From Escherichia coli (GTDB lineage Bacteria; Pseudomonadota; Gammaproteobacteria; Enterobacterales; Enterobacteriaceae): 64,000 bases of DNA. The stretch is from assembly GCF_003334355.1 (NCBI RefSeq), contig NZ_QOWP01000023.1. One strand, 5' to 3'. Under the pieces are notes generated by a model. It was not told the DNA's origin, did not search any database, and saw only the letters and a list, made by a program, of their open reading frames with translations. A program made the translations under genes and the position numbers. Positions within the stretch are counted from its first letter, which is position 1. Every line of letters begins with the position of its first letter. This document shows positions 5,041 to 53,217 of the stretch, one piece after another.

Positions 5041-5607
5041 ATGGGCAACACTAAGTTGGCTAATCCGGCACCGCTGGGCCTGATGGGCTTCGGCATGACC
5101 ACCATTCTGCTTAACCTGCACAACGTGGGTTATTTCGCTCTGGACGGTATTATTCTTGCCATGGGCATTTTCTACGGCGGCATCGCGCAAATTTTTGCCG
5201 GTCTGCTGGAGTACAAAAAAGGCAACACTTTCGGTTTAACCGCATTCACCTCTTACGGTTCTTTCTGGCTGACGCTGGTTGCGATTCTACTGATGCCGAA
5301 ACTGGGTCTGACCGATGCGCCAAATGCACAGTTCCTTGGTGTCTACCTGGGTCTGTGGGGCGTATTTACGCTGTTTATGTTCTTCGGCACGCTGAAAGGC
5401 GCACGCGTTCTGCAATTCGTTTTCTTTAGCCTGACCGTGCTGTTTGCCCTGCTGGCGATCGGTAACATTGCCGGTAACGCCGCAATCATCCACTTTGCCG
5501 GCTGGATTGGTCTGATCTGCGGTGCCAGCGCAATCTATCTGGCGATGGGTGAAGTACTGAACGAGCAGTTTGGTCGCACCGTTCTGCCGATTGGTGAATC
5601 CCACTAA
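5041..5607 (+). CDS. satP: Succinate-acetate/proton symporter SatP (YaaH), 188 aa
   Basis: Polytopic membrane ORF with the NPAPLGL motif of the GPR1/FUN34/YaaH family. Confidence 0.93.
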   Translation: MGNTKLANPAPLGLMGFGMTTILLNLHNVGYFALDGIILAMGIFYGGIAQIFAGLLEYKKGNTFGLTAFTSYGSFWLTLVAILLMPKLGLTDAPNAQFLGVYLGLWGVFTLFMFFGTLKGARVLQFVFFSLTVLFALLAIGNIAGNAAIIHFAGWIGLICGASAIYLAMGEVLNEQFGRTVLPIGESH

Positions 5608-5616
5608 TTGTTTTGA

Positions 5617-5643
5617 GATCCCCCCGCTCGGGGGGATTTTTTT
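5617..5643 (+). terminator. Rho-independent terminator of satP, shared with convergent mog
   Basis: atcccccc (5618-5625) pairs with ggggggat (5630-5637), followed by a T-run that overlaps the mog stop codon. Confidence 0.8.
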
Positions 5644-6229
5644 ATTCGCTAACGTCGCGTCTTGCACTCTTCGGTCTGAATGCAGCAACCACTTCTGGTG
5701 CCGTTTCAACGTATGGCCCTTCCAGCAACTGAATGCAGTACGGTACGCTGGCAAAAATACCGTGTACCACAACGTTACCCTCAGCGTCCTTCACACCTTC
5801 CAGCGTCTCTTTAATAGACTTCGGCTGACCGGGTAAGTTAAGGATCAGCGCCTGTTTGCGAATCACGCCCACCTGACGCGAAAGGATCGCAGTTGGTACA
5901 AAATGCAGGCTGATCTGGCGCATCTGTTCACCAAAGCCAGGCATCTCGCGGTCCGCTACTGCCAGCGTCGCATCGGGCGTTACGTCACGACGCGCCGGGC
6001 CAGTTCCGCCCGTGGTGAGCACCAGATGGCAACTCATTTCATCCACCAGCTCACACAACGTTTGCTCGATGATCGCCTGCTCATCGGGGATTAAGCGGGT
6101 TTCCAGTTCAAACGGCGTGGTTAGCGCCGATGTCAGCCATTCTTCCAGTGCAGGGATACCTTTATCCTGATAAACGCCGCTGGATGCGCGATCAGAGATG
6201 GAAACTAAGCCAATACGTAAAGTATTCAT
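5642..6229 (-). CDS. mog: Molybdopterin adenylyltransferase Mog (195 aa)
   Basis: ORF with start MNTLRIGLVSISDRAS at 6229; MogA/MoaB-type domain with TTGGTG. Confidence 0.93.
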   Translation of the reverse strand: MNTLRIGLVSISDRASSGVYQDKGIPALEEWLTSALTTPFELETRLIPDEQAIIEQTLCELVDEMSCHLVLTTGGTGPARRDVTPDATLAVADREMPGFGEQMRQISLHFVPTAILSRQVGVIRKQALILNLPGQPKSIKETLEGVKDAEGNVVVHGIFASVPYCIQLLEGPYVETAPEVVAAFRPKSARRDVSE

Positions 6230-6343
6230 CAAGATTTTTCCGTTTAAACAGTCTCGTTAAACAGAATGATACACTGCGAAGGGAGTGACAGACAGGCTTC
6301 AGAAGAGGTAGCGTGACCGACTTCCCGGTCACGCTAAGAATGA

Positions 6344-7297
6344 TTACAGCAGATCGCCGATCATTTTTTCCAGTTTTTCCTGGTCAATAGCAAACTTACG
6401 GATACCTTCCGCCAGTTTATCTACTGCCATTGGATCCTGGTTGTGCTGCCACAGGAACTCGGACTCAGTGATACGCGCCGGACGCGCTTTCACTTCGCCG
6501 GTGTAAGACAGTTTACGTTCAATAGCCCCTTCGCTCTCAGCCAGCTCTTTCAGCAGTGCCGGTGCGATGGTCAGACGGTCGCAGCCTGCCAGTTCCAGAA
6601 TTTCGCCGATGTTACGGAAGCTTGCGCCCATAACCACGGTTTCATAACCGTGCTCTTTGTAGTACTGGTAGATTTCAGATACAGAAACCACACCCGGATC
6701 TTCTGCCGGAGCGTACTCTTTCTTATCGGTATTCGCTTTGTACCAGTCAAGAATACGGCCAACGAACGGCGAGATCAGGAACACGCCCGCTTCCGCACAA
6801 GCACGAGCCTGAGCGAAGGAGAACAGCAGGGTCAGGTTACAGTTGATACCTTCTTTTTCCAGCTGTTCTGCAGCACGAATACCCTGCCAGGTAGAAGCCA
6901 GTTTGATCAGAATACGATCGTTGCTAATACCTGCATCGTTGTAGAGTTTGATCAGGCGTTTTGCTTTCGCAATTGACGCTTCGGTGTCATAGGAAAGACG
7001 CGCATCAACTTCAGTTGAGATACGGCCCGGAACCAGTTTCAGGATTTCCAGACCAATATTTACTGCCAGTTTGTCGGTCGCGTCCACGATCTGCTGCGCG
7101 CGATCGTTGCTCTGCTGTTTCGCCCAGGCGACAGCATCATCAATCAACTTACGGTATTCCGGAATCTGCGCTGCGTTAAGAATGAGAGAAGGGTTGGTTG
7201 TGGCATCCTGCGGTTGATACAGCTTCATTGCCGCGATGTCCCCAGTGTCGGCCACTACGGTGGTGTACTGACGAAGGGAGGTCAATTTGTCCGTCAT
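6344..7297 (-). CDS. talB: Transaldolase B (317 aa)
   Basis: ORF 6344..7360. The conserved start [20 protein letters not shown] is at 7297. Class I transaldolase. Confidence 0.96.
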
Positions 7298-7575
7298 GAT
7301 AGTATTTCTCTTTAAACAGCTTGTTAGGGGGATGTAACCGGTCTGCCCTGATGATATCACGACGCAACGTCAGCGCAACCGCCGACAAGACGGTTATCGC
7401 CAGGCGAGACTGTTTCGGATTTCTGACACTGCGTTGATATCGCCCGCCATTTTTATACAAAACCTCATGTATGCTACGCAGAAGTTATCAAGTACCTCGT
7501 AGCGTATATACTTCTTAAACAATTGGTAACGTTTACACAGGAAAGTCATCGCGACCGGCAATAAGAGGGATATGC

Positions 7576-9006
7576 ATGCCAGATTTTTTCTCCTTTATTA
7601 ACAGCGTCCTTTGGGGATCGGTAATGATTTACCTGCTCTTCGGCGCAGGTTGTTGGTTCACTTTTCGCACCGGATTTGTGCAGTTTCGCTACATCCGCCA
7701 GTTTGGCAAAAGTCTTAAAAATAGCATTCATCCACAGCCAGGCGGTTTAACCTCATTTCAGTCATTGTGTACCAGTCTTGCGGCGCGCGTGGGTAGCGGC
7801 AACCTGGCCGGCGTTGCGCTGGCAATTACCGCCGGTGGACCTGGAGCCGTCTTCTGGATGTGGGTTGCCGCGTTTATCGGCATGGCGACCTCGTTTGCCG
7901 AATGTTCCCTCGCACAGCTTTATAAAGAACGTGATGCCAATGGGCAGTTTCGTGGCGGACCGGCATGGTATATGGCGCGCGGGCTGGGGATGCGCTGGAT
8001 GGGCGTTCTGTTCGCCGTCTTTTTGCTCATCGCCTACGGCATAATTTTCAGCGGAATTCAGGCGAACGCCGTTGCGCGAGCCCTGAGTTTTTCTTTTGAT
8101 TTTCCCCCGCTGGTGACAGGTATTATTCTCGCTGTCTTTGCTCTGCTGGCGATCACTCGCGGTCTTCATGGCGTCGCCCGGCTCATGCAGGGGTTTGTCC
8201 CGTTGATGGCGATAATCTGGGTACTGACCAGCCTGGTGATTTGCGTAATGAATATCGGGCAACTTCCCCACGTCATTTGGTCTATTTTTGAGAGTGCTTT
8301 TGGCTGGCAGGAAGCGGCAGGCGGCGCGGCGGGATATACCTTAAGCCAGGCGATTACTAACGGTTTTCAGCGCAGTATGTTTTCCAATGAGGCGGGAATG
8401 GGGTCGACGCCAAACGCGGCAGCGGCAGCGGCGTCCTGGCCTCCGCATCCGGCAGCGCAAGGGATTGTCCAGATGATTGGCATTTTTATCGACACCCTGG
8501 TCATCTGTACGGCAAGCGCCATGCTGATATTACTGGCGGGTAACGGCACAACCTACATGCCGCTGGAAGGTATTCAGCTTATCCAGAAGGCGATGCGGGT
8601 GCTAATGGGTTCCTGGGGTGCTGAGTTTGTTACCCTCGTGGTTATTCTGTTTGCCTTCAGCTCCATCGTTGCCAACTACATTTACGCCGAAAACAATCTC
8701 TTCTTTTTACGCCTGAACAACCCTAAAGCGATCTGGTGTTTGCGGATCTGCACCTTCGCAACGGTCATCGGCGGCACCTTGCTAAGTCTTCCGCTGATGT
8801 GGCAACTGGCAGATATCATAATGGCCTGCATGGCTATTACCAATTTGACCGCCATTTTACTGCTCTCGCCTGTGGTTCATACCATTGCCAGTGATTATCT
8901 ACGCCAGCGTAAACTCGGCGTGCGCCCGGTGTTTGATCCGTTGCGTTATCCGGATATCGGCCGCCAGCTTTCTCCGGACGCGTGGGATGATGTTTCGCAG
9001 GAGTAA
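7576..9006 (+). CDS. yaaJ: Alanine/glycine:cation symporter family transporter YaaJ (476 aa)
   Basis: Polytopic membrane ORF. Recall of E. coli YaaJ and synteny. Confidence 0.9.
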   Translation: MPDFFSFINSVLWGSVMIYLLFGAGCWFTFRTGFVQFRYIRQFGKSLKNSIHPQPGGLTSFQSLCTSLAARVGSGNLAGVALAITAGGPGAVFWMWVAAFIGMATSFAECSLAQLYKERDANGQFRGGPAWYMARGLGMRWMGVLFAVFLLIAYGIIFSGIQANAVARALSFSFDFPPLVTGIILAVFALLAITRGLHGVARLMQGFVPLMAIIWVLTSLVICVMNIGQLPHVIWSIFESAFGWQEAAGGAAGYTLSQAITNGFQRSMFSNEAGMGSTPNAAAAAASWPPHPAAQGIVQMIGIFIDTLVICTASAMLILLAGNGTTYMPLEGIQLIQKAMRVLMGSWGAEFVTLVVILFAFSSIVANYIYAENNLFFLRLNNPKAIWCLRICTFATVIGGTLLSLPLMWQLADIIMACMAITNLTAILLLSPVVHTIASDYLRQRKLGVRPVFDPLRYPDIGRQLSPDAWDDVSQE

Positions 9007-10492: not shown

Positions 10493-10514
10493 TGATTGAG
10501 ATAATGAATAGATT

Positions 10515-15198: not shown

Positions 15199-15224
15199 GG
15201 TTGTTACCTCGTTACCTTTGGTCG

Positions 15225-15261
15225 AAAAAAAAAGCCCGCACTGTCAGGTGCGGGCTTTTTT
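15225..15261 (-). terminator. thr attenuator terminator
   Basis: aagcccgcac (15232-15241) pairs with gtgcgggctt (15248-15257), flanked by an A9/T-run, between thrL and thrA. Confidence 0.9.
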
Positions 15262-15279
15262 CTGTGTTTCCTGTACGCG

Positions 15280-15348
<69 letters not shown>

Positions 15349-15395
15349 TGTTGTGTACTCTGTAATTTTTATCTGTCTGTGCGCTATGCCTATAT

Positions 15396-15424
15396 TGGTT
15401 AAAGTATTTAGTGACCTAAGTCAA
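15396..15424 (-). promoter_or_regulatory. thrL promoter (-35 TTGACT, 17-nt spacer, -10 TAACCA)
   Basis: Minus strand has TTGACT (15419-15424) and TAACCA (15396-15401). The position agrees with the K-12 thrLp as I recall it. Confidence 0.6.
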
Positions 15425-15558
15425 TAAAATTTTAATTTACTCACGGCAGGTAACCAGTTCAGAAGCTGCTGTCAGAGACTCTTTTTTTAATCCACACAGA
15501 GACATATTGCCCATTGCAGTCAGAATGAAAAGCTGAAAAATACTTACTAAGGCGTTTT

Positions 15559-16245
15559 TTATTTGGTGATATTTTTTTCAATATCATGCAGCAAACGGTG
15601 CAACATTGCCGTGTCTCGTTGCTCTAAAAGCCCCAGGCGTTGCTGTAACCAGTCGACCAGTTTTATGTCATCTGCCACTGCCAGAGTCGTCAGCAATGCC
15701 ATGACTCGTTCGCGTAAAGCTTGCAGTTGATGTTGGTCTGCCGTTGTGTCACTTTTCGTCGGTTGTTGTATTAATGTTGCTAATTGATAGCAATAGACCA
15801 TCACTGCCTGCCCCAGATTGAGCGAAGGATAATCCGCCACCATCGGCACACCAGTAAGAACGTCAGCCAACGCTAACTCTTCGTTAGTCAACCCGGAATC
15901 TTCGCGACCAAACACCAGCGCGGCATGGCTCATCCATGAAGATTTTTCCTCTAACAGCGGCACCAGTTCAACTGGCGTGGCGTAGTAATGATATTTCGCC
16001 CGACTGCGCGCAGTGGTGGCGACAGTGAAATCGACATCGTGTAACGATTCAACCAGTGTCGGGAAAACTTTAATATTATCAATAATATCACCAGATCCAT
16101 GTGCGACCCAGCGAGTGGCTGGCTCCAGATGTGCCTGACTATCGACAATCCGCAGTTCGCTAAACCCCATCGTTTTCATTGCCCGCGCCGCTGCCCCAAT
16201 ATTTTCTGCTCTGGCGGGTGCGACCAGAATAATCGTTATACGCAT
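15559..16245 (-). CDS. lasT: SpoU/TrmH-class RNA methyltransferase LasT (YjtD), 228 aa
   Basis: ORF 15559..16266; conserved start MRITIILVAPARAENIGAAARAMKTMGF at 16245. Confidence 0.85.
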   Translation of the reverse strand: MRITIILVAPARAENIGAAARAMKTMGFSELRIVDSQAHLEPATRWVAHGSGDIIDNIKVFPTLVESLHDVDFTVATTARSRAKYHYYATPVELVPLLEEKSSWMSHAALVFGREDSGLTNEELALADVLTGVPMVADYPSLNLGQAVMVYCYQLATLIQQPTKSDTTADQHQLQALRERVMALLTTLAVADDIKLVDWLQQRLGLLEQRDTAMLHRLLHDIEKNITK

Positions 16246-16589
16246 ATTGCCACTCTTCTTGACCAAATGACCGCGAACAGGGTGATCACTGTCAACTTAT
16301 TACGCGGTGCGAATTTACAAATCCTTAACGTAAGTCGCAGAAAAAGCCCTTTACTTAGCTTAAAAAAGGCTAAACTATTTCCTGACTGTACTAACGGTTG
16401 AATTGTTAAAAAATGCTACATATCCTTCTGTTTACTTAGGATAATTTTATAAAAAATAAATCTCGACAATTGGATTCACCACGTTTATTAGTTGTATGAT
16501 GCAACTAGTTGGATTATTAAAATAATGTGACGAAAGCTAGCATTTAGATACGATGATTTCATCAAACTGTTAACGTGCTACAATTGAAC

Positions 16590-16603
16590 TTGATATATGT
16601 CAA
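16590..16603 (+). promoter_or_regulatory. FNR-like site in the arcA upstream region
   Basis: TTGATatatGTCAA has one mismatch to TTGAT-N4-ATCAA. arcA is known to have an FNR-dependent promoter. Confidence 0.4.
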
Positions 16604-16644
16604 CGAAGCGTAGTTTTATTGGGTGTCCGGCCCCTCTTAGCCTG

Positions 16645-16785
16645 TTATGTTGCTGTTAAAATGGTTAGGATGACAGCCGTTTTTGACACTGTCGGGTCCT
16701 GAGGGAAAGTACCCACGACCAAGCTAATGATGTTGTTGACGTTGATGGAAAGTGCATCAAGAACGCAATTACGTACTTTAGTCAT
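16645..16785 (-). CDS. yjjY: Small ORF yjjY (46 aa) inside and antisense to the long arcA leader region
   Basis: Hand translation gives MTKVRNCVLDALSINVNNIISLVVGTFPQDPTVSKTAVILTILTAT*. The position matches the K-12 annotation. Expression is unproven. Confidence 0.4.
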   Translation of the reverse strand: MTKVRNCVLDALSINVNNIISLVVGTFPQDPTVSKTAVILTILTAT

Positions 16786-16880
16786 GTTACGCCGATCATG
16801 TTAATTTGCAGCATGCATCAGGCAGGTCAGGGACTTTTGTACTTCCTGTTTCGATTTAGTTGGCAATTTAGGTAGCAAAC

Positions 16881-21192: not shown

Positions 21193-21666
21193 TTATTGCC
21201 GCCACGGCATGACAGGAACCGCGCTAATCGCGTTTTTCGGCGAACCTTCTACAACTTTGTCGGAGTAAGCCAGATAAGCGAGCGCGTTGCGTTTGGCGTC
21301 ATAAAAGCGCACGACCTGTAACGACTTAAAGACCAGGGACGTGCGTTTTTTGAATACTACCTCGCCCTGAGCTTTGCCGTTTTTAATACGATCCGACAGT
21401 TCAATCGGCCCGACTTGCTGACAAGAAATAGCCGCATCGGAGGTATCTTCCGCCAGACCCAATCCCCCTTTAATACCACCTGTTTTCGCCCGGCTCACAT
21501 AACAGGTGACATTTTTCACATCGGGATCGTCAAAGGCTTCCACAACAATTTTGTGATCCGGGCCGATCATTTTAAATACGGTGTCGACCGAACCAATCTC
21601 TTCTGCATGAGCCAATGGCCCCAGCATTATCAGGCTTAAAGACAGGATCAAATGCTTGTATTTCAT
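21193..21666 (-). CDS. creA: Periplasmic protein CreA (157 aa)
   Basis: Signal peptide [21 protein letters not shown]; first gene of the cre operon. Confidence 0.85.
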
Positions 21667-21876
21667 ATTGTTACCATTTTTATCTATTACACGAGCAATT
21701 AGTTCGTCACGGTAAATAACATATTGATTAAGAACAAAATCTCAATACTTTTATTTCCGTCAAGACCTAAAACATACTCTACTAAGAAAAAAACACTGAA
21801 TGCTAAAACAGCAAAAAATGCTATTATCCAATTACCTGATGTCAGGTGCTCGTTGTTGAAAGGATGAGGATATTTT

Positions 21877-33074: not shown

Positions 33075-34091
33075 ATGTCCACATTACGCCTGCTCATCTC
33101 TGACTCTTACGACCCGTGGTTTAACCTGGCGGTGGAGGAGTGTATTTTTCGCCAGATGCCCGCCACGCAGCGCGTTCTGTTTCTCTGGCGCAATGCCGAC
33201 ACGGTAGTGATTGGTCGCGCGCAGAACCCGTGGAAAGAGTGTAATACCCGGCGGATGGAAGAAGATAACGTCCGCCTGGCACGGCGCAGTAGCGGTGGCG
33301 GCGCGGTGTTCCACGATCTCGGCAATACCTGCTTTACCTTTATGGCTGGCAAGCCGGAGTACGATAAAACCATCTCCACGTCGATTGTGCTCAATGCGCT
33401 GAACGCGCTTGGCGTCAGCGCCGAAGCGTCCGGGCGTAACGATCTGGTGGTGAAAACCGCCGAAGGCGACCGCAAAGTCTCAGGATCGGCCTATCGCGAA
33501 ACCAAAGATCGTGGCTTCCACCACGGCACCTTGCTGCTCAATGCCGACCTTAGCCGCCTGGCAAACTATCTCAATCCGGATAAAAAGAAACTGGCGGCGA
33601 AAGGCATTACCTCAGTGCGTTCCCGCGTGACCAACCTCACCGAGCTGCTGCCGGGGATCACCCATGAGCAGGTTTGCGAGGCCATAACCAAGGCCTTTTT
33701 CGCCCATTATGGCGAGCGTGTAGAAGCGGAAATCATCTCCCCGGACAAAACGCCAGACTTGCCAAACTTCGCCGAAACCTTTGCCCGTCAGAGTAGCTGG
33801 GAATGGAACTTCGGTCAGGCTCCGGCATTCTCGCATCTGCTGGATGAACGCTTTAGCTGGGGCGGCGTGGAACTGCATTTCGACGTTGAAAAAGGCCATA
33901 TCACCCGCGCCCAGGTGTTTACCGACAGCCTCAACCCCGCGCCGCTGGAAGCCCTCGCCGGGCGACTGCAAGGCTGCCTGTACCGCGCGGATATGCTGCA
34001 ACAAGAGTGCGAAGCGCTGTTGGTTGACTTCCCGGACCAGGAAAAAGAGCTACGGAAGTTGTCGACGTGGATAGCGGGGGCGGTAAGGTAA
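33075..34091 (+). CDS. lplA: Lipoate-protein ligase A (338 aa)
   Basis: [57 protein letters not shown]... Confidence 0.95.
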
Positions 34092-34122
34092 CTCGCTGAT
34101 TAAAATATCCAGGGAAGGAAAT

Positions 34123-34386
34123 ATGATCGATCTGGAAAACCAGGAACGGGAGATTATCAATTTAATGTTCAGCCAGCGTATTTCCTGGCTAGCCGCCGTG
34201 CGTATCAGGCATAAATTATCGCTTGCTGAAGTAAGTAAAATGTTAGGTATCTCGATTAATTCTCTAAAACAGATCGAAAAGACGGAACGGCTTAGCTCAA
34301 ACATCAAAAGCAAAATGGCAGAAATTTATGGTTGTCCACCAGAGTTGCTGATATGCCCTTCCTGGATGACGGCTGAACATAAATGA
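34123..34386 (+). CDS. Orphan XRE/Cro-type helix-turn-helix protein (87 aa) in a strain-variable AT-rich islet
   Basis: Purine-rich RBS agggaaggaa (34111-34120). The HTH core is RHKLSLAEVSKMLGISINSLKQIEKTER, followed by ..KMAEIYGCPPELLI. GC is about 41% (108/260 counted). Confidence 0.55.
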   Translation: MIDLENQEREIINLMFSQRISWLAAVRIRHKLSLAEVSKMLGISINSLKQIEKTERLSSNIKSKMAEIYGCPPELLICPSWMTAEHK

Positions 34387-34412
34387 ATAGATTCGTGAAT
34401 AGATACTTGAAT
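34383..34412 (+). repeat. Three TGAAT-containing direct repeats at exact 12-bp phasing
   Basis: aTGAATAGATtc / gTGAATAGATac / tTGAATGTATtt, with TGAAT starting at 34384, 34396 and 34408. Confidence 0.8.
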
Positions 34413-34471
34413 GTATTTTATTTTTTATCTATATGAAAAATAATAGTAAATCTATAAATCAGTTGCTATTG

Positions 34472-34483
34472 ATGAATAGATAC
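34472..34483 (+). repeat. Fourth copy of the ATGAATAGATAC 12-mer
   Basis: atgaatagatac at 34472-34483. It is identical over 11 nt to 34396-34406. Confidence 0.8.
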
Positions 34484-34513
34484 TAAAAGCCGGAGCAGTC
34501 TCCCACTCCGGCT
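34484..34513 (-). terminator. deo operon terminator downstream of deoD
   Basis: agccggag (34488-34495) pairs with ctccggct (34506-34513). The minus-strand transcript continues with UUUU. Confidence 0.75.
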
Positions 34514-34545
34514 TAACACGACAATCGCCTTTCAGCGAAACACAA

Positions 34546-35265
34546 TTACTCTTTATCGCCCAGCAGAACGGATTCCAGTGCGATTTTGATCATGTCGTTG
34601 AAGGTGGTCTGACGCTCAGCGGCAGTGGTCTGCTCGTGAGTGCGGATGTGGTCAGACACGGTGCAGATGGTCAGGGCTTTCGCGCCAAATTCTGCAGCGA
34701 CGCCGTAGATACCAGCCGCTTCCATTTCCACGCCGAGGATGCCGTATTTTTCCATCACGTCGAACATTTCGCCGTCCGGAGAGTAGAACAGGTCAGCGGA
34801 GAACAGGTTACCAACGCGAGCATCAACGCCCAGTGCTTTAGCCGCGTCTACCGCGTTACGCACCATGTCAAAGTCAGCGATAGCGGCAAAGTCATGGTCT
34901 TTAAAACGGATACGGTTAACTTTGGAATCGGTGCAGGCACCCATACCGATAACGACGTCGCGCAGTTTTACGTGCGGCAGAACAGCGCCACAGGAGCCTA
35001 CGCGGATAATTTTCTTTACGCCGAAATCGGTGATCAGTTCTTTGGTGTAGATGGAGCAGGACGGGATACCCATACCGTGACCCATTACGGAAATTTTGCG
35101 GCCTTTGTAAGTACCGGTGAAGCCCAGCATACCGCGAACGTTGTTCACTTCACGGGCATCTTCAAGGAAAGTTTCAGCAATATACTTCGCACGCAGCGGG
35201 TCGCCTGGCATCAAAACTACGTCAGCGAAATCGCCCATTTCTGCATTAATGTGTGGGGTAGCCAT
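34546..35265 (-). CDS. deoD: Purine nucleoside phosphorylase DeoD (239 aa)
   Basis: [37 protein letters not shown]... Confidence 0.97.
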
Positions 35266-35292
35266 TGTTTTATCCTTATCAACATGTTTTCA

Positions 35293-35313
35293 CCCTCTCC
35301 CTGTGGGAGAGGG
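35293..35313 (-). other. Perfect 9-bp stem / 3-nt loop hairpin in the deoB-deoD spacer
   Basis: ccctctccc tgt gggagaggg, followed by ccggggtgaggg. This is a GC-rich box-like element in a 79-nt spacer. Confidence 0.6.
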
Positions 35314-35344
35314 CCGGGGTGAGGGCATCAAGCCGCACCCATTA

Positions 35345-44269: not shown

Positions 44270-44875
44270 TTACTTAGTTTTCAGATCATTTTTAACGCTT
44301 TTCACACCATCTACCGCTTTGGCGATACTTTCAGCACGGTCGCTCTGTGCCTGGGAATCGACGGTACCGGAGAGCTGAACCACGCCGTCGGTGGTTTCAA
44401 CTTTCACATGACGGGAAGGGACGATATCGTCCGCCAGCAGTTTGGCTTTGATTTCACTGGTGGTGGCGGTGTCACCCGCGTAGCCCTTCACAGAGCCTTC
44501 TTTAGCGTCGCGAACGTGCAGTTTGTCGCTGACAGAGGTCACCCCTTCAACGCCTTTCGCCACTTTCACTGCCTCTTCGGCCTGAGCCTGGCTTTCAACG
44601 AAACCGCTCAGGGTCACGACTTTTTGATCGGTTTTGACAGAGATATCGGTGCTCTTGATGTTGTCATGATCCACCAGGGCCGCCTTCACTTTCGCGGTGA
44701 TGGCGCTGTCATCCATGAAATTACCGACTTTATTCATAGAGCTATCGACTTTTTGCCCTGCGCTTTCATTGGTAGTCTGCGCGTTGTTTTCCGCGTAGGC
44801 AGAGCCTGTCGCGACGGCAGAGGTCAACATTACAGCCAGCAGAGTTTTCGAAATCTTCAGTCTTGTCATAGTCAT
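44270..44875 (-). CDS. osmY: Periplasmic osmotically inducible protein OsmY (201 aa)
   Basis: Start [28 protein letters not shown] at 44875; two BON domains. Confidence 0.93.
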
Positions 44876-45267
44876 CGATTTATTCCTGTAAGTTTGCTCG
44901 TAATTTGAGCCTGGCAACACGAGGTTGCATTGCTGAATAGGGAGAGACTTCACCCTCTACAGAAGTCAATGGTCGCCATCACAAAAGCGATGGGTGATGA
45001 ATAACGACCATTACAGCCTCTGAATCAGTTATTAATATCGGTAGAATGACAATCTACGGCTTTAGATACTGATATCTACGCATTGAACGGTATTTAACGC
45101 CGTCAGAAATGTCATTACTTTGTTAAATATAGATCACAATTTTGAAACCGCTCGGGATATCATCGAAAACATAAGCAAAAGTGAATGTTTTAAGAACATT
45201 CCGTAAGCGGCTAATAAGGAAGGGAAATTGACAGGGCGCAGCGGCTACCGCGCCCTGGAGGCAAGAA

Positions 45268-51916: not shown

Positions 51917-52599
51917 TCTGCGGCATCTCCATAAACAGAAGGCAAGTTAAGTTCTCTTGCACCCTGCGCGCTATTTATCCATGCATACATTTCAGCGTTG
52001 CTGTGAATTGCCAGTCGACGCATCGCACTGTTTTTTTGGGCGCTGATAGTTTTATTACTTTTCTTAAGCAACGAAGCTATCTGGTTGATGCCCCATCCTT
52101 TACCTAATAGCCGCAGTACCTTGCGCTCTGAAAGAGTGAGAATGACGGAGCGATAGCTAAAATCATGAGTTTCAGTCATTGCCGGAGAGGTCAGCATGGC
52201 GCTGATACGCTCTGCGTGCGTATTGCCGGAACGTACGGTCTTGACCAGATTCTCAATGGGTTCAACATCAGACAATAACGTCGCCGTAGGGCACATGAGC
52301 AATTCTACTGCCTGGGAATACCAGGAGCGTGACACCATGAAAACCCAGTGAATTTCCCGATATTGTGAGATTAAAGAATAATAATGTTCACAAACAGAAC
52401 GTGGATCTTCACTTTCACCGGCTAAATCAGCAATGACTAATCCGGAACGACGTAATTGTAATAAGGTAAGGTCCTCCGCAGAGGCGCTGGATATTATTTC
52501 ATATTCAGGGAAGTGAGTCCTCATGACCTCTTTTAACCCTGCTTGCATAACAGGTATTTTACTGATAACAATTCCATTTTTGCAGCATCCTGGCAACAT
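51874..52599 (-). CDS. yjjQ: LuxR/FixJ-type transcription factor YjjQ (241 aa)
   Basis: C-terminal HTH ..[41 protein letters not shown]... The 3' end overlaps bglJ by 43 nt. Confidence 0.85.
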
Positions 52600-53217
52600 A
52601 TTTCCTCCACATCCACTGTCTAAAAATCATGATGGTTTATTCAGGATATTCATTCCTTAAATGTTTCCAGCAAATTAATAGATTAAGCGAATAAATTATC
52701 CTTAGCATTCACTTTCATATCAGCATACTCCTGCTGCACAACAACTCCACTGCATGTGTCAGAAGGTTAGCATCAAATGATAACCTGGTGAAATAGCCTG
52801 GAGACATTTAAAATATCTACATTAAGTTGTTAGAAATACTTAATGAAAAACAGAAATATCATTCATTTAATTTATAATTCAATGATACCTCTTCCCGCAA
52901 AATGCAAAATCACACAACCAATATTTATTCAATAAAATCTGATTGTTTTAACTTGTTGGCATTAAAAAACGCGCCCAGTTATCTATTATCCTGATTCGTA
53001 AAGGCCAAACAATAAATTCATTATGGTGATAATATTCATGTGATAATTTGTTTGCGGCGAGAGATAATTCGCTTTTTATCACCGAGCTTCTCCCGATAAC
53101 CAGGATTAATCAGCGCAATTTTGATCTTAACCTACCGCAAAACAACCGTGCTTCATGATACAAATGAATTCTCATTATCTGAACAATACGCAGCACGTCT
53201 ATGACAAAGGGCGAGTT

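Follow-up and report, generated by a model that had tools for sequence, protein, structure and literature searches.

An XRE-type helix-turn-helix gene and hipH as alternative occupants of the lplA-deoD junction in Escherichia coli

The islet between lplA and deoD and its exchange with hipH

We analysed the interval between lplA and deoD in a 64,000-nucleotide stretch of Escherichia coli DNA (contig NZ_QOWP01000023.1), the whole of which is called the window here. The stop codon of lplA ends at 34091 and that of deoD, on the minus strand, begins at 34546, leaving an islet of 454 bp (34092-34545) that is 100% identical to the one in E. coli ATCC 8739 (NZ_CP022959.1). The islet encodes one small protein with a helix-turn-helix (HTH), which we call HTH87, and it occupies the slot that holds the toxin kinase gene hipH (yjjJ) in K-12. 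An earlier note, drawn up from the sequence alone, had described the interval as AT-rich, with a guanine-plus-cytosine (GC) content of about 41% over the open reading frame (ORF) and 20 of 100 positions in 34381-34480. A recount bore this out: the islet has a GC content of 38.3% and its ORF one of 41.7%, 20 of the 100 positions in 34381-34480 are G or C, and the window as a whole stands at 51.9%. The coordinates likewise confirm a well-formed ORF of 87 codons with a purine-rich ribosome-binding site, 31 nt after lplA and on the same strand (Table 1). The protein is already in RefSeq as WP_000566150.1, under the name 'helix-turn-helix domain-containing protein'.

The ORF is preceded by the purine-rich stretch GGGAAGGAAAT. 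A consensus promoter and terminator scan, which we judged uninformative, gave no terminator in the 31-nt spacer and one weak promoter-like site whose -10 element overlaps the ATG. At the other end, the TGA stop codon of HTH87 forms the first three bases of the first of four copies of a short box, TGAATAGAT. Downstream of the gene we found the boxes and the deoD terminator only, with no ORF of at least 30 amino acids beyond antisense noise, and Rfam returned no RNA family match in 33900-34700 at E <= 1. The deoD hairpin folds at -21.1 kcal/mol (z = -4.1) on the minus strand, where a U-tract follows it, and at -15 kcal/mol on the plus strand, where there is none; it would thus make a good terminator for deoD only.

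Table 1. Features of the islet, with K-12 positions given relative to the Reg-Seq transcription start site (TSS) of hipH in MG1655, 4621716
Feature	Position in the window	Strand	K-12 position relative to TSS	Remarks
Spacer, lplA stop (TAA) to HTH87 start	34092-34122	+		31 nt; purine-rich Shine-Dalgarno region GGGAAGGA at 34112-34119
HTH87 gene, XRE/Cro-C1-type HTH	34123-34386	+		87 codons; ORF list, Pfam HTH_3, AlphaFold model, Foldseek, RefSeq, dN/dS
Three tandem 12-bp units, each with a box TGAATAGAT	34384-34419	no strand	boxes at +17..+25, +29..+37, +41..+49	exact matches; alignment with K-12 and B2
Box 1	34384-34392			
Box 2	34396-34404			
Box 3	34408-34416			degenerate here (TGAATGTAT)
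Diverged spacer of the relic hipH-type promoter	34420-34472	-		~45% identity to K-12; -10-like hexamer kept
-10-like hexamer (TATTAT here, TATACT in K-12)	34445->34440	-	-11..-6	followed by TTTTCA
Distal box 4 (TGAATAGAT)	34473-34481	no strand	-48..-40	89 bp from box 1; corresponds to part of the K-12 hipH promoter
deoD intrinsic terminator hairpin	34487-34514	-		then UUUUAG on the minus strand; kept in K-12
hipH ATG (K-12 only)			+53	

In K-12 the interval measures 1498 bp and holds hipH (1332 bp) on the opposite strand, so that it is 1044 bp longer than the islet. The earlier note was therefore accurate in giving K-12 about 1.5 kb with hipH at this point, a gene that is absent here, and in estimating the window to be about 1.04 kb shorter. 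Its view that the whole 454 bp is foreign and replaced held for one part of the islet. Only 34092-34377 has no K-12 counterpart; the remaining 168 bp (34378-34545), the most AT-rich portion, have their homologue in the promoter and leader of hipH in K-12 together with the deoD terminator, with 78% identity over 170 aligned columns. This identity is uneven. About 35 bp next to the cargo, which are the three tandem box units, are almost identical; the following ~60 bp are ~45% identical; and identity rises to ~95% over the last ~90 bp, which take in the distal box, the hairpin of the terminator and the deoD end.

The left breakpoint falls exactly at the lplA stop, which is TAA in HTH haplotypes and TAG, followed directly by the hipH stop, in hipH haplotypes. 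The right breakpoint falls at the hipH ATG or the HTH87 stop; in K-12, 3 nt separate box 1 from the hipH start codon, which reads CAT on this strand. These positions indicate a cargo-for-cargo swap in opposite orientation with nucleotide-precise junctions. Searches by blastn (word size 7), blastp and tblastn detected nothing similar to hipH in 34092-34377, on either strand and at the level of DNA or of protein. We rejected the idea that the HTH87 ORF is a remnant of hipH, since no residual similarity is left and genuine N-terminal stumps of hipH (in strain WB61, Yokenella and Phytobacter) look different.

The islet had also been put forward as the only clearly accessory DNA in the window, which is not established, as other 400-bp bins of 32-40% GC are equally or more AT-rich: 52401-53200 (32-39% GC in one tally), 16401-16800, 21601-22000, 15201-15600 and 44801-45200. 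Next to the locus there is a second small indel polymorphism. The deoD-deoB spacer (35266-35344) is 79 bp long here and in strain 2014C-3655, including a GC-rich palindrome that resembles a repetitive extragenic palindromic (REP) element, and 56 bp long in K-12, sequence type (ST) 131 and O157:H7.

The HTH87 protein and its relatives

Residues 23-76 of HTH87 matched Pfam HTH_3 (PF01381) at 29.4 bits, above the curated cut-off of 23 bits (E = 8.3e-7). An AlphaFold (AF2) model built on the family alignment, with a predicted local distance difference test score of 87.8, was a five-helix bundle containing a helix-turn-helix. Foldseek gave CylR2, SinR, P22 C2 and 434 Cro as its best matches at a probability of ~1.0, and a profile search of the PDB agreed with the XRE fold (E = 4e-5). 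The Cro/CI-type HTH that had been read from the letters is upheld by these searches. The HTH core (residues ~22-76) is flanked by an extra N-terminal helix (4-18) and by a conserved C-terminal tail, CPSWM.

Compared with small XRE repressors and controllers (CylR2, the SinR N-domain, P22 C2, 434 Cro and C.AhdI/C.BclI), HTH87 has the same five-helix fold, with target-normalised template modelling scores of 0.62-0.77. The closest are CylR2, P22 C2 and 434 Cro, which superpose at a root-mean-square deviation of 1.5-2 Å over 53-60 residues. Sequence identity to the solved repressors is only 16-30%, and the N-terminal helix is an addition of HTH87. Unlike the proteins compared, HTH87 has no partner genes, neither a restriction-modification system nor a phage, and its DNA binding is a prediction. 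A defence-system library matched it with a generic HTH model only.

A HMMER search of 1.84 billion representative proteins returned 38 hits at E <= 0.001. Beyond orthologues and generic multi-HTH proteins, the best hits were four proteins of 95-133 amino acids (E = 1e-7 to 5e-4), and HTH87 aligns solely to their C-terminal HTH domain. Of these, P0102 (locus L090) and P0097 (L093) lie directly downstream of a ParE_toxin gene. P0081 has upstream of it only an ORF of 35 amino acids and, like P0102, shows a weak RelB-like match in its N-terminal segment; P0093 stands alone, with no toxin neighbour. The BLASTP alignment of HTH87 with P0081 reaches 45% identity over 67 residues, with the motifs VSLLAAWRI and IYGC in common.

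These relatives point to antitoxins that are encoded toxin-first, next to ParE/RelE toxins, in the order known from HigBA. The HTH domain is homologous, the four aligned relatives showing 27-41% identity, and VS(W/L)LAA(V/W)RI and (A/K)(E/K)IYGC are common to both sides. However, HTH87 has no adjacent toxin, as lplA ends 31 nt upstream, and it lacks the RelB-like N-terminal extension of ~55 residues, beginning where that extension ends. The CPSWM tail and the fixed chromosomal site after lplA are specific to HTH87. It resembles other orphan antitoxin-like regulators in being a small, toxin-less HTH protein of antitoxin ancestry that is variably present and often pseudogenised. It is unlike them in sitting in the slot of an unrelated toxin gene whose promoter and operator array have been retained alongside.

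The place of HTH87 suggests another origin, that it is a HipB-type antitoxin left behind when a HipA-family kinase was lost: it is a small XRE protein in a slot that elsewhere holds such a kinase. HipB, at 88 amino acids, is about the size of HTH87. Nevertheless, BLASTP aligned HTH87 with neither HipB nor HipH, HTH87 is never found together with hipH, and its nearest relatives pair with ParE-type rather than Hip-type toxins. HipH itself, a HipA-family Ser/Thr kinase toxin of 443 amino acids encoded on the opposite strand, is unrelated to HTH87, which has no kinase domain; the fused N-terminal HTH of HipH, winged-helix-like by eye only, has no detectable similarity to it. From the literature, the reported rescue of YjjJ toxicity by HipB (PMC9948734) would favour a HipB-type origin, and the monocistronic encoding of HipH with its own fused HTH (PMC8262856) counts against it. 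We regard this origin as largely refuted and give it next to no credence. The earlier suggestion of a remnant antitoxin thus survives as far as ancestry near ParE-linked HTH antitoxins is concerned; an antitoxin that is HipB-like or cognate to HipH is not what was found.

The two alleles in E. coli and the junction in other genera

We counted the alleles in 5426 complete E. coli genomes. The full HTH allele was present in 4058 (75%) and hipH in 1348, which places K-12 in the minority. About 1300 genomes whose best match to the islet was limited to the common 168 bp were hipH genomes, and the two cargos are therefore mutually exclusive, in agreement with the proposal that the locus is an alternative to hipH. 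In no genome was either cargo present a second time. Far from the rarity implied by the word orphan in the earlier note, HTH87 is the majority allele; the same 454 bp, whose presence in K-12 and most E. coli that note had set against its own account, occurs in most E. coli and not in K-12. Sampled hipH carriers include K-12, ST131 and UTI89, and HTH87 carriers include ATCC 8739, the sampled O157:H7, many strains of Shiga toxin-producing E. coli (STEC) or commensal type and the B2 strain SE15. K-12 and ATCC 8739, both of which we take to belong to phylogroup A, differ in allele, and so do, within B2, ST131 and UTI89 as against SE15.

Many copies of HTH87 are broken. A 30-mer query that matches only if the variant base is present found a change of Gln50 to a stop (CAG to TAG at codon 50, in the recognition helix; Q50*) in 1691 genomes, and the corresponding wild-type 30-mer in 2034. 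As the commonest single version is a null allele, HTH87 is dispensable in E. coli. The Q50* allele occurs in strains of STEC or commensal type. We inspected four further alleles, of which two bear a pseudogene annotation, with a frameshift in the first and the internal stop in the second, and a protein search returned many truncated versions or versions disrupted by an insertion sequence (IS). By comparison, the O157:H7 genomes TX 376-2 and EDL933 encode a protein identical to that of ATCC 8739. Three of the Q50* matches fell on plasmid-labelled records, which may be captured chromosomal fragments or assembly errors.

A rare third state was seen in strain WB61, where hipH is reduced to its first 64 codons (L085, 2449-2640). 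Stumps of hipH that keep only the HTH part measure 64, 88 and 49 codons (L085, L020 and L027), and outside E. coli they occur in Yokenella and Phytobacter diazotrophicus. They suggest recurrent loss of the kinase domain with retention of the DNA-binding head and the boxes. Two further third states were seen, a deletion from box to box in L005 and, in E. coli TB354, an IS200C transposase gene between hipH and deoD, within the hipH promoter and box region (L004, 3398-3856).

For other Enterobacteriaceae, lplA-deoD junctions were fetched through LplA from 80 GTDB species genomes, and deoD, HipH and HTH87 were located by tblastn. Most junctions are empty, consisting of 40-105 bp of terminator or REP-like DNA without boxes. 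Orthologues of hipH at 59-69% identity occupy the same slot in Kosakonia, Phytobacter, Citrobacter sp. FP75, Leclercia, Scandinavium and isolate G50, and one at 95% identity does so in E. albertii. Orthologues of HTH87 at 51-54% identity lie right after lplA, in the same orientation and with boxes, in Superficieibacter, Klebsiella sp. MISC125 and UBA3516; one more comes from a metagenome (L097).

Between genera the ratio of non-synonymous to synonymous divergence (dN/dS) of HTH87 is 0.14-0.32, with synonymous sites saturated (proportion of differing sites, pS, 0.6-0.75), and the length of the ORF and the placement of its start and stop are conserved in at least four genera. Comparisons inside Escherichia, which involve small counts, give dN/dS values of 0.12-0.70, compared with 0.02-0.08 for lplA. 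Because orthologues sit at the same junction across genera and evolve at dN/dS 0.14-0.32, we conclude that HTH87 is a genuine gene of long standing, not a mobile cassette. Judged from these alignments, the pattern fits a protein that would have been functional over the long term, yet is dispensable and often lost in E. coli.

The losses raise the question of whether HTH87 is now a functionless, decaying remnant in E. coli that has simply had too little time to disappear, the islet doing nothing more than separating lplA from deoD. The premature stop in 1691 of ~4058 HTH-allele genomes, the frameshifted and IS-disrupted versions, a deletion from box to box in L005 and dN/dS values of 0.46-0.70 for some pairs within Escherichia all agree with decay. 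Against it, the protein has kept 51-54% identity, at the low dN/dS given above, between genera whose synonymous sites are saturated; its ORF is unchanged in length and in start and stop placement in those genera; and 2000 or more E. coli genomes, those of O157:H7 that we examined among them, still have an intact allele. We consider decay to be possible but doubtful as an account of the gene.

The base composition of the islet (38% GC against 52% in the window) and the patchiness of both cargos among genera also invite the view, raised in the earlier note, that it is a small mobile or horizontally acquired cassette that recently entered or replaced the hipH locus. So does the use of this junction for fimbrial operons and other genes in other Enterobacteriaceae. 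But the sequence of the islet contains neither an integrase nor a transposase gene, has no IS end and is not flanked by repeats, direct or inverted, and the islet exists in single copy at one site only. The same junctions recur in genera whose proteins have diverged by ~50%, a pattern suggestive of an old event, passed on by vertical descent and by homologous recombination through the conserved lplA and deoD flanks. A recent cassette is accordingly very unlikely. The lplA-deoD junction is a general accessory-gene hotspot in which both cargos are old residents.

Other occupants of the junction were noted along the way. Four Enterobacter loci (L048, L069, L072 and L079) carry what appears, judged from ORF sequences, to be a chaperone-usher fimbrial operon (~5200-9000), and in L031, L033 and L055 there are single ORFs of other kinds (lipoprotein-like, fimbrial-subunit-like and membrane protein). 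Some GTDB records are suspect (L005, L055 and L073). In 'Enterobacter hormaechei B56', lplA is 99% and the HTH87 product 100% identical to the E. coli genes of the window, and contigs of 'Chryseobacterium sp. 18061' and 'Vagococcus sp. WN89Y' bear an enterobacterial lplA-deoD region; these records look mislabelled or contaminated.

The box array and the reading of the locus

The slot of HTH87 has in common with that of K-12 hipH the deoD terminator, four TGAATAGAT boxes, a -10-like element and their spacing. In 13 loci from at least nine genera, tandem boxes occur at offsets 0, 12 and 24 whichever cargo is present, and the distance from box 1 to box 4 is 87-89 bp except in Superficieibacter (L019), where it is 76 bp and one 12-bp unit is missing. 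The array accompanies the hipH orthologues of Kosakonia, Phytobacter, Citrobacter, Leclercia, Scandinavium and E. albertii. The boxes are missing from junctions in which neither cargo has left a trace, although one box survives as a relic in a few short junctions of the Kosakonia type, and Escherichia sp. MOD1-EC7003 retains only a partial trace of box 4. When 18 loci were aligned in the hipH sense, nothing between the boxes was conserved except the -10-like hexamer and the TTTTCA behind it. Each E. coli genome has a single array. Across the window there are nine box matches with at most one mismatch, where 11 +/- 3 are expected by chance, and only the cluster at 34384-34481 is non-random; a lone exact TGAATAGAT stands at 10505-10513.

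The boxes vary slightly. Box 3 has two mismatches in ATCC 8739, one in O157:H7 and none in the Q50* class, and a 12-bp unit is deleted in three other Escherichia HTH alleles (L086, L007 and L008). Escherichia hipH haplotypes (K-12, ZH193 of B2 and E. albertii) have three perfect tandem boxes, the distal box of ZH193 having one mismatch.

Reg-Seq tables list two repressor-type sites for yjjJ: -24..+18, attributed to MarA, and +30..+45, with no factor assigned (PMC7567609). The latter coincides with box 2 and the start of box 1, where it is cut by the end of the mutagenised window. This repressor site provides functional support, from an independent source, for the importance of the boxes in K-12. 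Induction of hipH by cyclic di-GMP (c-di-GMP) has also been mapped to the hipH promoter (PMC11452175). The AT-rich 3' part of the islet is a relic hipH promoter and operator that is still under selection, probably bound by a factor other than HTH87. An antisense gene served by this promoter was considered and rejected: a minus-strand ORF of 27 amino acids begins with an ATG at the hipH start position in E. coli, and its frame, length and sequence are unconserved in other genera.

Candidates for the box binder are the N-terminal HTH of HipH, HTH87 and a host factor common to all these bacteria. In nine HipH orthologues that are ~60% identical overall, the recognition helix ISQATFSRLV and the segment FGKARATRYAL are invariant. 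Two observations count against HipH, namely that chromatin immunoprecipitation with exonuclease treatment (ChIP-exo) of tagged YjjJ gave no peaks (PMC8464067), and that boxes persist in genomes without hipH. A common host factor is the only candidate that would explain the boxes by a single binder. MarA was dismissed as box binder, as the region contains no marbox match at three or fewer mismatches in four haplotypes. An informal comparison with the motifs of ArgR (ARG box), Cra, OxyR, Fur, CreB, TorR and OmpR gave partial resemblances, and none fits the 12-bp direct-repeat spacing.

HTH87 itself could be the repressor of the TGAATAGAT boxes, silencing the relic hipH promoter once the toxin gene had been replaced and perhaps an incoming hipH as well, as an anti-addiction or immunity function, with the convergent layout working as a feedback switch. 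This idea draws on the retention of the boxes and their 87-89-bp geometry in hipH-less HTH87 haplotypes of several genera while the spacer diverged, on the position of the HTH87 stop codon within box 1 in every orthologue, and on the single-copy array, which suggests a locus-specific binder. On the other hand, the box region already acts as a repressor site in K-12, where there is no HTH87. At the positions of helix 3 that usually contact bases, the residues differ between genera (SINSLKQ against TPESLAR) while the boxes are identical, the L097 lineage has an intact HTH87 and has lost the array, and the Q50* null class retains three perfect boxes. Being 3' of the gene, the boxes cannot autoregulate HTH87 directly. 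We consider this role unlikely.

The interpretation that we think probable is that HTH87 is a solo, antitoxin-derived XRE regulator, encoded by one of two long-standing lplA-deoD alleles of Escherichia and related Enterobacteriaceae that have a regulatory module in common. To this module would belong the terminator of deoD, one distal and three tandem TGAATAGAT boxes and, between the distal box and the tandem ones, a weak promoter of the sigma-70 type. What sets the alleles apart would be the stretch between the boxes and the lplA stop, where either hipH is transcribed from the promoter of the module or HTH87 is read from lplA toward the boxes. HTH87 would derive from a HigA-like, toxin-first lineage of ParE/RelE-associated antitoxins, of which it would represent the DNA-binding half, with neither a toxin partner nor the neutralising extension. 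As the 31-nt spacer contains no terminator or credible promoter, we infer that the gene is transcribed by read-through from lplA; translation would start from its own Shine-Dalgarno sequence, and the product would act as a dimeric DNA-binding repressor. The relic promoter, if active, would fire antisense into the 3' end of HTH87.

Several points weigh against this interpretation. The antitoxin ancestry relies on four distant homologues, just two of which have a toxin neighbour. The helix-3 positions that would contact bases differ between the E. coli and the Klebsiella-type orthologues, and because of this difference the target cannot be read from the protein, so that a role other than DNA binding may still apply. 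The stop in the recognition helix, present in 42% of HTH-allele genomes, means that HTH87 may be on its way out in E. coli. The genome set is biased toward K-12 derivatives, ST131 and STEC, and the percentages describe the database and not the species. Finally, we found in the literature no transcript, ribosome-profiling or proteome evidence for HTH87, nor any paper on the gene, its WP accessions or the lplA-deoD polymorphism.

A more far-reaching idea is that the array and promoter form a conserved dock with two interchangeable cargos, the toxin kinase HipH and the antitoxin-derived HTH protein, maintained as a trans-species polymorphism across Enterobacteriaceae, and that HTH87 works on this same operator, either as a switch or to confer immunity against HipH. 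We hold this to be improbable. If it were true, the two alleles would play opposite parts in a single circuit related to persistence.

Cumulatively, the analysis bears on three matters: 1) the locus is a clean natural case of non-homologous allelic replacement at nucleotide-precise junctions; 2) HTH87, generically annotated as it already is, is uncharacterised, and the conserved box array is the most useful by-product, offering a concrete handle on the regulator of hipH since the Reg-Seq repressor site falls on the boxes; and 3) HipH/YjjJ has been studied in K-12 and in uropathogenic E. coli as a toxin tied to persistence, cell division and c-di-GMP signalling. As three quarters of sequenced E. 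coli are without HipH and have the HTH gene instead, conclusions drawn from K-12 do not transfer to most strains.

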